From NCBI GenBank assembly GCA_000004695.1, contig CM000152.2:3456001-3520000 (forward strand): 64,000 nt of DNA, read 5' to 3'. The notes beneath the pieces were generated by a model. The model did no database searches. It had not been told where the DNA came from and worked only from the letters and a program-made list of their open reading frames with translations. The translations under genes were made by a program, and so were the position numbers. The DNA comes from Dictyostelium discoideum (lineage: Eukaryota). Numbering within the stretch: position 1 is the first letter of the stretch; each line of letters starts with the position of its first letter. Shown here one piece after another: positions 28,694-49,118 of the stretch.

Positions 28694-31600
28694 TTAAAAA
28701 TTCTTTTCATTTTCTTTATGAAAATCAGTTTGATATTTAACTAATTTACTGAATTTTGAATTTTTAGTATTAATTAAATTAATTGGTGTATCATATTCTA
28801 TTAATTCACCTTTATCGACAACAGCGATTTTAGTACTATCAATGATTGTGTCGAGTCTATGTGCAATTGTTAGCATTGTACAATCATTGAAATTTTCAAG
28901 TAAAGTTTGTTTAATTAAATCACCTGTTACATAATCTATACCAGAGGTAGCTTCATCCATTAGGACTACTTTAGAATTCTTTAAAATTGTTCTTGATAAA
29001 CAAAGTAATTGCTTTTGACCAAACGATAAACCGTCACCACCTTCTTCTATCATAGTTTCTAATTTTAATGGCATTGATGAAATTGTTGATTTTAATTTAA
29101 CCTTTTCTAAAGCTACCCAAATTTCACTATCAGTGTATTTATTAAATGGATCGATATTTAAACGAATAGTACCAGAGAAAATGAATGGATCTTGTGGGAC
29201 AATACCAAGTGAACTTCTTAAATCGTGTAATCCAATCTTTGAAATGTCAATACCATCAATTAAAATTGAACCTTTAGAACATTCAACCATACGGAATAAA
29301 CTTATACCAACGGTACTCTTACCTGCACCAGTTCTACCAACAATACCAATATGATCATTTGAATTGATTTTAAATGATAAATTTTTTAAACTTGGTTCTG
29401 AAGTTGGACGATATCTAATTTCAACATCTCTAAATTCAATTTCACCTTTAGATGGCCATTTTTCATTTAAATTAATCATATTTTCTTCTCCTTCTTCTTC
29501 ATTATCAATTGTAAATCTATTACCTTCTTTTGGAGTATTTATATAACTTTCAATTCTTTCAACTGAATTCATTTTAACTTCAAGTTCTACAAATTGTCTA
29601 ACAGCCCAATTTAAATAGGTACACATTCCAATTGCAGTTGTAACAGATAAAACAGAGAAACCAGCATTTGAATTGAATAAGGAGAAGAAAGCAGTTAAGA
29701 AAACAACTAAAGCAGAGATAAATTCTAAACGTACACCAATCCATCTATGAATTGAAAAACTATAATAGAATAAACGTAAATTAATATTGATATGATCTTG
29801 CATCATTGAAATGAATCTATTTTGTTGTTGATAGCTTCTAATTGTAACCAAACCATTAAAAGTCTCTTGTAACAATGAGAAGATTGGACTTCTTGTAATT
29901 GATTCATATCTTTTTAAATCCCTTGATGATACAGCATAAATATTCTTTATAATATTATAAACTATAATTAACACTAAAAATGGTAAACTAATTAATGGAC
30001 TAATATAAATCATAACGCAAATTGCGAAAACGACAGTCGAACCACAATAAAGTACATCAGAGAATAAATCATATAATAGTAAATCAATCTCGGCAATATC
30101 CTTACTAAATCTATTTAATATACGACCTGATGGATTCGTATCAAAGAATTGACAACTTGCAAAACCAACTGAATTCAATAATGATGTATGTAAATTCTTT
30201 GATGCTGAAAATGTAACATGTGCCAACATAAAATATCTAATTACCAATGTAACTATAAATAATCCAATGAATATTATATAATAAAATATATAGAAACTAT
30301 CTGATTTACCTTGAAGTTTATGTTGTGACCATGTTGATAACCAAAAATCTGTCATTTGGAAAATCGCTTGACTAAAGAAATAAACTACACAAGTTGCAAT
30401 AAAAAAGAATGTTGATGAACCATGTTTAAAATATTCTCTATAAACATGTAATCCAATTGCACCTTCACTTTTATCTTCTTTTACTAATAATTTTGCTTTT
30501 TCAATTAAATTTGAATCATGTTTATCACTAATAATTTCATCAATATTAATTAATTTATTTGATTCAATCAATGAATTTGATTTTTTCATTGGATTTTCAT
30601 CAATAATTTCATTTTCATCATGTTGTTGTTGTTGTTGTTGTTGTTGTTGGTTATCAATATTTAATTTCTTTGTTTTCATAATTGATTCGAAATCAATACC
30701 TTTTGATTTTAATTCTGAGTAAGTACCTTGAACTAATTTACCATTATCAACAACAACTATATGATCAGCTGATGGAATGAATTGAAGTTGATGTGTAACT
30801 AGAATACGTGTTTTATCATTCATCATACCTTGAATACAATGATTGAATAAATGAGTTGCAACTTCTGGATCAACAGCTGATAAAGGTTCATCTAAAATAT
30901 AACAATCTGAATTTGCATATAATGCACGTGCCAATGATATACGTTGTTTTTGACCACCTGATAAATTAATACCACGTTCACCAATCTCTGTTAAATCTTT
31001 AGCTGCTAATTGTAATAAATCTGGTGCGAGACAACATGCTTCAATTACTTTTTTATAACGTTCTAAATTCATTTCATTACCAAATAAAATATTCTCTCTT
31101 AATGATGTACTTAATAAAAATGATTGTTGAGTTGTAAATGAAATTTTATTTGGAGTATTAACTCTACCACTAACTTTATAAATTTCACCAATTAAACCAC
31201 TAACTAAACTAGTTTTACCACTACCAACTACACCACAAATTATTGTTAATTTACCTGCTGGTGCTTTAAAATTAATATTATTTAATAAATAAGATTCATA
31301 ATTATTATTATTATTATCATCTGTGGTTGTTGTTGTTGTTTCATATTCTTCTTCACTCTTTTCAATTAATCTTTTTTTAATTTCATTTTTATTATTATTA
31401 TTATTATTATCACCATTATTAGTTATATAATCATCATTATCTTGATTCCAATTAAAAGTACCATTATCAATTAAAATATCATCATTAATAGATTTATTAT
31501 TGAAATTTATAAATGGTTGAGTTTGAATTTCAGATAATTGTAAAAATGATTCAACTCTTTTTGCAGAAGGTATTAAACCTAATAAATTATGAATTGCTTC

Positions 31601-31975
31601 TGGTAATCTCATAATTGGTTGTCTAAGATTAACGAAAATTGTAATTGCTGTGAATGCAACTGATAATTCAATTTCATTATTAATTGAATAAACTGAAAAT
31701 GTTGAAACTAATACAACAGCATTTGTAGTTTGTGATAACATCTTTTCAAAAATTGCAAATATTACACGTCTATATAAATATTTTAATTGTAATCTTCTTT
31801 GTTCTTCAATTCTATCTAAAAATAATTTCTCCCATGCATATAATTTTAAAAATCTAATACCATTTATAAATTCCGATGTTAAATTACATCTTGTATCTGA
31901 ATATCCTAATGATAACATTAAATTTTTACTCATTTTTGATCCAAAAAATGTATTAATTGGTAATGATATAATCAT
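28694..31975 (-). CDS. ABCC transporter copy A, exon 3 (rest of TMD1, NBD1 with Walker A [9 protein letters not shown] / signature [8 protein letters not shown], TMD2, NBD2 with Walker A [9 protein letters not shown] / LSFGQKQL)
   Basis: 1093-aa ORF. Acceptor ttaatag immediately precedes ATGATTATATCA. Full ABC hallmarks. Stop at 28694-28696. Confidence 0.9.
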   Translation of the reverse strand: [1093 protein letters not shown]

Positions 31976-32080
31976 CTATTAAAAAAAAAAAATAAAAAAA
32001 AAAAAATTAAATTAGTTATTAATATTTTTTGGTTTGAAAAAAAAAAAAAAGAATATACAAAAATAAAATTAAAAACTTAC

Positions 32081-32462
32081 AACACCAAAACCAACTAAAC
32101 CACTCCAACCAACTATCCAACATAATAATGCAAGTAATGCAGTAATCTGAATTGGGAATATAATAATTTCAAGATGACCAATCCAAAAGAAATCTGCAAA
32201 TAAACCAATATCAGTTGAAATTAAATTCATAATTGAACCTGAACTATATTTCTTACCACCTGAACTTGATAATTTTAACATTTTTTCATAGATTCTTTGT
32301 GAAAGTGCCCCACGGACATGTAATGAAGTCCTCATACCAAACCAATATAAAAATTGTTGTGATAATGTATAGGAAAATGTACCAACAAATAATAATACAC
32401 AATATCCTAACCCTGTTAAAAATGTTTTTTCATTTTTTGATAATTGTATATATTTTATAAAA
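32081..32462 (-). CDS. ABCC transporter copy A, exon 2 (382 nt; TMD1 helices)
   Basis: Acceptor ttttttag (minus) at 32463-32464. Frame FIKYIQLSKNEKTFLTGLGYCVLLFVGTFSYTLSQQFLYWFGMRTSLHVRGA.... GTAAGT donor at 32080. Identical in length to copy B exon 2. Confidence 0.8.
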
Positions 32463-48065: not shown

Positions 48066-48138
48066 CTAAAATATAAATATATAATAATTAAATTGTTAGA
48101 AAAAGTTAAAATATATGTGTGTGTGTGTTTTTACTTAC

Positions 48139-48520
48139 AATAGCAAAACCAACTAAACCACTCCAACCAATTACCCAACATAATAATGCAAGTAATCCAA
48201 TCATTTGTGAAGAGAATGCAAATATACCCATATGTTCAATCCAAAAGAAATTTGAAATAATTCCAACGTCAACTGATAATAAATTCATAATTGAACCTGG
48301 ATTATAATTCTTTCCTCCACAAGTTGTAAGTTTTAATGTTTTTTCATAAACTTTTATTGATAAACATCCTTTAATTTCAAGTGAACTCTTCATTGCAAAC
48401 CACATTAAAAGTTGTTGAGAAAATGTATATGAAAATGATGCTATCAATAATAATATACAATATCCAATTCCAGCTAAAAATGATCTCTCTTTATTTGTTG
48501 ATTGAATAAATTGAATAAAA
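48139..48520 (-). CDS. ABCC transporter copy B, exon 2 (382 nt)
   Basis: Acceptor tttttttag (minus) at 48521-48522. FIQFIQSTNKERSFLAGIGYCILLLIASFSYTF... parallels copy A. GTAAGT donor at 48138. Confidence 0.8.
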
Positions 48521-48717
48521 CTAAAAAAATATATATATATTATAATAAATATACCATTAATACACCCACCCTTTTTATAGTTTTATTTATTATTTATTAT
48601 TATTTATTATTTATCATTATTGGTTTCTTTTTTTTTTTTTTTTTTTTTTTTTAAAAAAAAAAAGAAAATAAAATAAAATAAAAATATAATAAAATAATAA
48701 ATAAAATTTTATCTTAC

Positions 48718-49118
48718 TATTTTAAAGATAATGGTGATAGTATAGATAGAATGTTTGTTAGGATTTGTAAGAATATTGTTAATTTATTTCTATATAAAAA
48801 TTGTTTATAAAAATGTTTAATTAAAGGCCATCTACTATTATTATTTTTATTTAAATTAATATTATTTAATAATTGAATAGATGATTGAACTTTAATATCT
48901 TTTGGAAGATCATTGATATCACTCATTTCAAGTGGACCATTGAAATAACCAGAAATTAGCATTCTTTGAGCCCATCCAAATGTTAGCCTTGACCATAAAT
49001 TTGCATTATCCTCTGGACATGGTTGTTGATAATAATCCTTATTATTATCAAACTCTTGTGATGATAACAAAGAATAAGTTAATTTTTCTTTTATTTTATT
49101 TCTTAAGTTTTTAAGCAT
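48718..49118 (-). CDS. ABCC/MRP-type ABC transporter, copy B, exon 1 (start ATG 49116-49118: MLKNLRNKIKEKLTYS...)
   Basis: QQPCPEDNANLWSRLTFGWAQRMLISGYFNGPLEMSDINDLPKD parallels copy A exon 1. The track's poly-F N-terminus (to 49277) is a poly-A translation artefact. GTAAGA donor at 48717. Confidence 0.8.

Follow-up and report, generated by a model that had tools for sequence, protein, structure and literature searches.

Mosaic identity and probable recurrent gene conversion between two linked ABCC transporter genes of Dictyostelium discoideum

Interlocus gene conversion between linked duplicates is a textbook process. We have analyzed two linked ABCC (MRP-type) transporter genes of Dictyostelium discoideum, abcC13 (copy A) and an intact paralogue (copy B), whose patchwork of identical and diverged segments is very probably the product of recurrent and recent events of this kind between old duplicates. 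Both genes lie in a stretch of 64,000 nt (assembly GCA_000004695.1, contig CM000152.2, positions 3,456,001 to 3,520,000 of the forward strand), which we call the window; all coordinates below are window positions. There are two described systems close to this one. In the passages of PMC6053246 that cite Lamping et al. (2017), recurrent gene conversion is described for the tandem pair ABC11-ABC1 of Candida krusei (Pichia kudriavzevii). In Dictyostelium, the paralogues of the tgrB family intermingle within clades, a pattern read as interlocus gene conversion or recombination (bioRxiv 10.1101/2025.10.22.684067). The literature searched contains no account of conversion among the abcC genes of Dictyostelium, the original Dictyostelium ABC survey being outside that search.

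Copy A is an exact match to abcC13 of strain AX4 (UniProt Q54V86, 'ABC transporter C family member 13'; DDB_G0280539). The model of copy B had no exact-sequence match in the protein collection searched, where no AX4 entry for it appeared; its open reading frame (ORF) is uninterrupted in AX4, in strains W and R and in two strains of Dictyostelium citrinum. Both genes have three exons (Table 1), all the introns are GT..AG and exon 2 has 382 nt in both, which agrees with the original prediction, made from the sequence of this stretch, of two ABCC genes in the same orientation. That prediction also called them tandem. They are indeed on the same strand, with B upstream of A and 16,050 bp between their starts, but they are not directly adjacent, since three genes of the plus strand separate them. 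Pfam recognized two ABC_membrane and two ABC_tran domains in A and in B, that is, a (TMD-NBD)2 order (TMD, transmembrane domain; NBD, nucleotide-binding domain, the ATP-binding part), and the closest matches outside the dictyostelids were ABCC/MRP proteins (MRP1, ABCC9, YCF1 and similar). By domain order, by these relatives and by the database name of A, both are assigned to the full ABC transporters of the ABCC (MRP) type, with transport as the predicted function. The ratio of non-synonymous to synonymous divergence (dN/dS) between orthologues was about 0.07 for A and about 0.16-0.28 for B, values that point to purifying selection on both copies.

We compared the two coding sequences in a codon alignment, with dS calculated by the method of Nei-Gojobori. 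Overall nucleotide identity was 81.7% in this alignment, with abrupt switches along the length between about 100% and 65-80%; away from the tracts the values ranged from 60 to 82%. Two major tracts of near identity correspond to NBD1 and NBD2, and two minor ones, one in TMD2 and the other close to the C-terminal end of NBD2, add to what had been predicted (Table 1). Given the mean divergence between A and B, the probability of the perfect run found in NBD1 is about 5e-28. At the protein level there was one difference (V/I) in 217 aa of NBD1 (from LNNINF to NIDNQQQQQ) and two in 118 aa of NBD2 (from SKGSILIDG to GIDYVT), so the tracts described as identical in the prediction are nearly but not strictly so. 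Its figure of about 75% for TMD2 coincides with the 75% protein identity that we measured, and its description of the linkers was also borne out: the poly-Q run of AX4 copy B, a perfect (CAA)21, belongs to the indel-rich linker that bounds the NBD1 tract, where A has a poly-N/poly-T/acidic linker. The length of this repeat is highly polymorphic, strain W having only QQ at the place. Introns and flanks of A and B do not align.

Table 1. Coordinates (window positions) of the two ABCC genes, of the tracts of near identity between them and of the genes located in between.
Feature	Position	Strand	Details
Copy A, abcC13	28694..33068	-	exons 33068-32680, 32462-32081, 31975-28694; 1350 aa
Copy B, intact ABCC paralogue	44769..49118	-	exons 49118-48718, 48520-48139, 48065-44769; 1359 aa
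NBD1 tract, A side	30641..31291	-	651 nt, 10 differences from B; perfect 353-nt run 30933-31285
NBD1 tract, B side	46752..47402	-	perfect 353-nt run 47044-47396
NBD2 tract, A side	28900..29296	-	397 nt, 8 differences from B; perfect 297-nt run 28925-29221
NBD2 tract, B side	44963..45359	-	perfect 297-nt run 44988-45284
Minor TMD2 tract, A side	30095..30185	-	B partner 46206-46296; 91 nt, 4 differences, 75-nt perfect run
Minor tract near C-terminal end of NBD2, A side	28783..28884	-	B partner 44846-44947; 102 nt, 4 differences
Fixed A/B difference	30797..30799	-	GTT (Val) in A, ATT (Ile) in B (46908-46910); within NBD1 tract, RIL[V/I]THQ
Perfect (CAA)21, poly-Q, in B	47406..47468	-	4 nt 5' (gene orientation) of the NBD1 tract edge
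Three intervening genes	35760..44485	+	not part of the converted sequence
Large low-complexity ORF	35760-39125	+	between A and B
Protein kinase	40721-41770	+	between A and B
Kinase C-terminal exon	44000-44485	+	between A and B

The switches were equally sharp at synonymous sites. In AX4 the dS between A and B was 0.057 in NBD1 and 0.036 in NBD2 when broad limits were taken for the tracts, and 0.030 and 0.013 with narrow ones. Outside the tracts it reached 0.59 in the N-terminus plus TMD1 and 0.47 over the whole TMD2, whose most diverged part gave 0.85. The contrast in synonymous differences inside and outside the tracts gave a Fisher p of 5e-22.

D. citrinum has both A and B, with the same neighbouring genes as D. 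discoideum, and this allowed us to ask of each site whether the copies group within the species (concerted) or with their orthologues. For the quartet formed by AX4-A, AX4-B and the A and B of D. citrinum strain U (same-genome pairs), the informative sites were all concerted in the NBD tracts (37 in NBD1 and 26 in NBD2, 63/63, with no site supporting orthology or the other grouping). In the rest of exon 3, 287 of the 320 sites followed orthology, 22 were concerted and 11 supported the other grouping; exon 2 gave 68, 3 and 3, respectively. Several of the 22 concerted sites located beyond the NBD tracts form small clusters, in conserved stretches of TMD2 and also at the C-terminal end of NBD2, and some of these clusters match the minor tracts (91 and 102 nt): a small one coincides with the minor TMD2 tract, which sits on a conserved segment, and another of three sites with the minor C-terminal tract. 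In a first quartet (A and B from different D. citrinum strains) the classes of sites formed 23 runs, while 122 +/- 6 were expected, and no permutation out of 100,000 gave so extreme a value. The A/B duplication is thus older than the split of D. discoideum and D. citrinum. We have also polarized the states shared by A and B within the tracts. Using D. firmibasis A (this species has a clear A orthologue) and the paralogue abcC2 as outgroups, and requiring all of them to agree, 10 shared states were derived in D. discoideum and 23 in D. citrinum; with D. firmibasis A alone the numbers were 29 and 36. Since derived states shared by both copies are found in both lineages, the homogenization took place after speciation in both species.

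The annotation of the two D. citrinum strains differs in one detail. In strain U the locus tags of the pair are two apart (ACTFIU_001796 and ACTFIU_001798), and in strain V (GCA_054859325) they are 24 apart (A is ACTFIV_010323 and B ACTFIV_010347), perhaps through a peculiarity of the numbering, perhaps because annotation or gene arrangement differs locally.

These data bear directly on the idea that the duplication is recent and that membrane domains and linkers diverged very fast afterwards, with the NBDs keeping their original identity. Non-synonymous change is indeed faster in B than in A (dN between orthologues of 0.044-0.054 for B and 0.023-0.025 for A), and the low-complexity linkers are clearly fast-evolving. 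However, not only dN but also dS is high outside the tracts (0.46-0.85), introns and flanks cannot be aligned, D. citrinum carries both copies among the same neighbours with orthology prevailing outside the tracts, and the tract mutations common to A and B arose after the speciation. We consider a recent duplication extremely improbable.

The low dS of the tracts could also be put down to purifying selection of great strength on the ATP-binding domains, reaching synonymous sites through codon usage or mRNA structure, with no exchange between the copies. The NBDs are the most conserved part of the family, with 82-89% protein identity of NBD1 even when it is compared with abcC2 or with the D. 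purpureum homologue, and the G+C content at third codon positions (GC3) in NBD1 is only 6%, which narrows the possible synonymous states. To weigh this we used the same codons in all the comparisons, with the strain W copy as the abcC2 sequence. Between A and B of one genome (AX4, W or D. citrinum) dS was 0.030-0.054 in NBD1 and 0.013-0.116 in NBD2. Between D. discoideum and D. citrinum it rose to 0.195 and 0.384 for A and to 0.209 and 0.449 for B, and between abcC13 and abcC2, located about 245 kb away in the same genome, to 0.375 and 0.827. In round figures, codons that vary by 0.20-0.38 between orthologues and by 0.38-0.83 against abcC2 differ by only 0.01-0.06 between A and B, so neither purifying selection nor codon bias accounts for the low values. 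Besides, the species- and strain-specific substitutions that A and B have in common are mostly synonymous, and abcC2, which is under the same constraints, shows no such blocks. Selection acting alone on the NBDs is therefore very unlikely as the origin of the tracts.

We also considered GC-biased gene conversion, which has conversion tracts in common with the A/B case. The G+C content of the window is about 20%, and GC3 was 0.06 in the NBD1 tract and 0.16 in the NBD2 tract against 0.08-0.17 in the unconverted parts; it was not above that of abcC2 either. As silent-site GC is not raised in the tracts, this variant was not supported.

Signs of homogenization are also apparent among strains of D. 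discoideum. Within the NBD1 tract, the two copies carried by one genome are distinguished by 7/651 positions in AX4 and 10/648 in W, while the alleles of AX4 and W differ at 13/651 for A and 15/651 for B. At seven sites of this tract A and B are equal in each of the three genomes (AX4, W and R) and yet the strains differ, and among the seven W has one derived base of its own and R another, in each case carried by A and B alike. When quartets were formed between strains, the concerted sites were confined to the NBD tracts, except for a single site of the minor TMD2 tract. Over the whole locus, mismatches between these strains and the window amount to roughly 2-3%, so there is no local oddity behind these numbers. 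Homogenization has thus continued after the divergence of the D. discoideum strains. The original prediction had read the mosaic as gene conversion, or concerted evolution, still ongoing, and had proposed three checks, on which our results fall on its side: the identity profile switches abruptly (about 100% against 65-80%), synonymous divergence, which is 0.45-0.85 elsewhere, drops to 0.03-0.06 in NBD1 and to 0.01-0.04 in NBD2, and at the orthologous locus of D. citrinum the paralogues group by species within the NBD tracts and by orthology outside. The word ongoing is supported by the strain-specific alleles that both paralogues carry, exclusively inside the tracts, across the three strains.

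An artefact of assembly or collapse, in which one copy would have been built from reads of the other, was also considered, and perfect identity over 300-350 nt is of a size able to mislead short-read or Sanger assemblies. The tract pattern, however, recurs in four independent assemblies: W, R and D. citrinum show these tracts again, with almost unchanged boundaries and each with private differences, and a few real differences remain within the AX4 tracts too. This recurrence excludes an artefact for practical purposes, and we give it next to no credence. No chimera or copy-number variant of A and B appeared among the five assemblies examined.

We used abcC2 as a control for exchanges with a third paralogue. 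Quartets of A or B with abcC2 across the two species gave 16 concerted against 13 other sites in one case and 13 against 13 in the other, scattered and forming no blocks, which indicates that the NBD signal is specific to the linked A/B pair. Exchange of A or B with abcC2 after speciation was rejected for lack of concerted blocks. A separate observation concerns the first approximately 90 codons of exon 3 (A 31700-31975), where the proportion of synonymous differences (pS) between abcC13 and abcC2 is low (0.13-0.23), at or below the level found between D. discoideum and D. citrinum orthologues. It may reflect an older exchange or a local constraint. Protein identities taken region by region gave no clear sign of a chimeric origin of A.

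Taken together, a duplication that predates speciation, copies of one genome that are closest to each other within the tracts, a reduced dS there and polymorphisms common to both paralogues make recurrent and recent interlocus gene conversion between A and B by far the most probable origin of the mosaic. Several points weigh against this reading or limit it. No conversion event was directly observed, and on sequence alone gene conversion and a double crossover look the same. In the first D. citrinum quartet, the one used in the runs test, A and B came from two different strains, which was later replaced by the same-genome pair, and the D. discoideum genomes compared were three (AX4, W and R). 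No B orthologue appeared among the annotated proteins of D. firmibasis, where the sequence examined of the locus (on CM069765.1) ends about 1.1 kb before the expected site of B; searches at the protein level with the first 460 aa of B and with the CH-domain region of its upstream neighbour located no D. firmibasis copy either. Two fixed A/B differences persist within the NBD1 tract, identical in AX4, W and R: the Val/Ile codon and a synonymous change two codons upstream (the pair spans A 30797-30805 and B 46908-46916). Their persistence indicates that the homogenization is incomplete or that selection opposes it at that point. Finally, either loss of homology or selection against converted membrane domains may make the tracts end at domain edges. 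At the two sites of fixed difference, both copies of D. citrinum carry the A state.

As to mechanism, a break or gap in one copy would be repaired using the other as template, either in the same chromosome, at 16 kb, or in the sister chromatid, and the repair would overwrite a few hundred bases, in keeping with tracts of approximately 100-650 nt. The exchange would be a recurrent homologous recombination, presumably non-reciprocal, and could work only where the copies remain similar enough, that is, in both ATP-binding domains and in a few small stretches of high conservation. With every event the local divergence would return to zero, making the process self-sustaining. Membrane domains, N-terminus and low-complexity linkers, 20-40% diverged and with many indels, would no longer be reached. 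The molecular pathway might involve break repair with rejection of heteroduplexes at the diverged flanks, and selection removing conversions that reach the membrane domains may contribute. The edges of the NBD1 tract are nearly the same in all the D. discoideum strains and in D. citrinum and coincide with unalignable, indel-rich low-complexity linkers; the NBD2 tract ends within the domain, where identity falls, and the short converted patches of TMD2 are found at its most conserved motif. Together these features fit a homology threshold, with slowly evolving segments remaining similar enough for recombination.

It is also conceivable that the exchange is real and that its restriction to the NBDs is kept by selection, either because the two pumps would lose a functional difference if their membrane domains were converted or because identical NBDs are favoured. 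The constancy of the NBD1 tract edges in the two species, the clear orthology and purifying selection of the membrane domains in each copy and the Val/Ile island fixed within the NBD1 tract in all strains speak in its favour. On the other hand, the indel-rich linkers at the NBD1 edges would be enough alone to halt heteroduplex extension, short patches of TMD2 have been converted wherever identity is high, which fits homology dependence better than a domain rule, and our search gave no functional data on a difference in substrate between A and B. We take this selective explanation as possible, although rather doubtful. A stronger version seems to us unlikely: that the restriction is a maintained modular arrangement and not a mere by-product of homology, with fast-evolving linkers, (CAA)n included, acting as insulators, so that the pumps would share a co-evolving ATPase 'engine' while selection keeps the membrane domains and the Val/Ile island distinct, an arrangement that would have persisted since at least the split of D. 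discoideum and D. citrinum.

The neighbouring genes keep their order in strains W and R as well as in D. citrinum. Among the genes located between A and B, the large ORF contains long AAT/poly-N runs and is annotated with 1474-1553 aa in other strains and in D. citrinum; it had no Pfam match.

The observation has practical consequences. Trees of the ABC-transporter family are commonly built from the NBDs alone; in the Tetrahymena ABC survey, for example, the NBD tree is compared with the one given in the Dictyostelium survey (PMC2984421). An NBD tree of A and B would suggest a very recent duplication, while the membrane domains show one that precedes speciation. The stretches of perfect identity, 300-350 nt long, matter for the mapping of reads, for primers and probes, and for constructs designed for homologous recombination or CRISPR. 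The abcC13 knockout has a described phenotype, with asynchronous development and effects on prestalk sorting (PMC3743828). The primers of the published knockout fragment map to 29295-30041, in the diverged part of TMD2, and we found no overlap of this fragment with a conversion tract. The pair offers a clean, dated and polarized case of conversion at the population timescale, in a haploid and extremely AT-rich genome and with no sign of GC bias, and could be useful for estimates of conversion rates.

Compared with interlocus gene conversion in general, the A/B pair shows nothing essentially different. The paralogues are old, identity is mosaic and dS is low in tracts of a few hundred bases; copies group by species in the tracts and by orthology outside them, polymorphisms are common to both paralogues, and flanks and gene order are kept. 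What distinguishes this case is that conversion stays within conserved domains, in a large multi-domain gene, and that the copies are parted by three unrelated genes instead of lying head-to-tail. The ABC11-ABC1 pair of C. krusei is similar in that same-orientation, neighbouring full-size ABC pump genes are homogenized by recurrent conversion. As far as the account in PMC6053246 goes, those genes are of the ABCG/PDR type, adjacent (with a 662-bp spacer) and 98% identical along the gene, and unequal crossing-over between them yields chimeras and copy-number variants. A and B, in contrast, are of the ABCC type and 82% identical overall, with only the NBDs and small patches homogenized. The tgrB family shares with A and B the organism and the reading as interlocus conversion or recombination; there, the process is seen as generating diversity while diversifying selection acts, whereas here it homogenizes conserved catalytic domains. 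The A/B pair is a fresh example of a well-known process and not a new kind of process.

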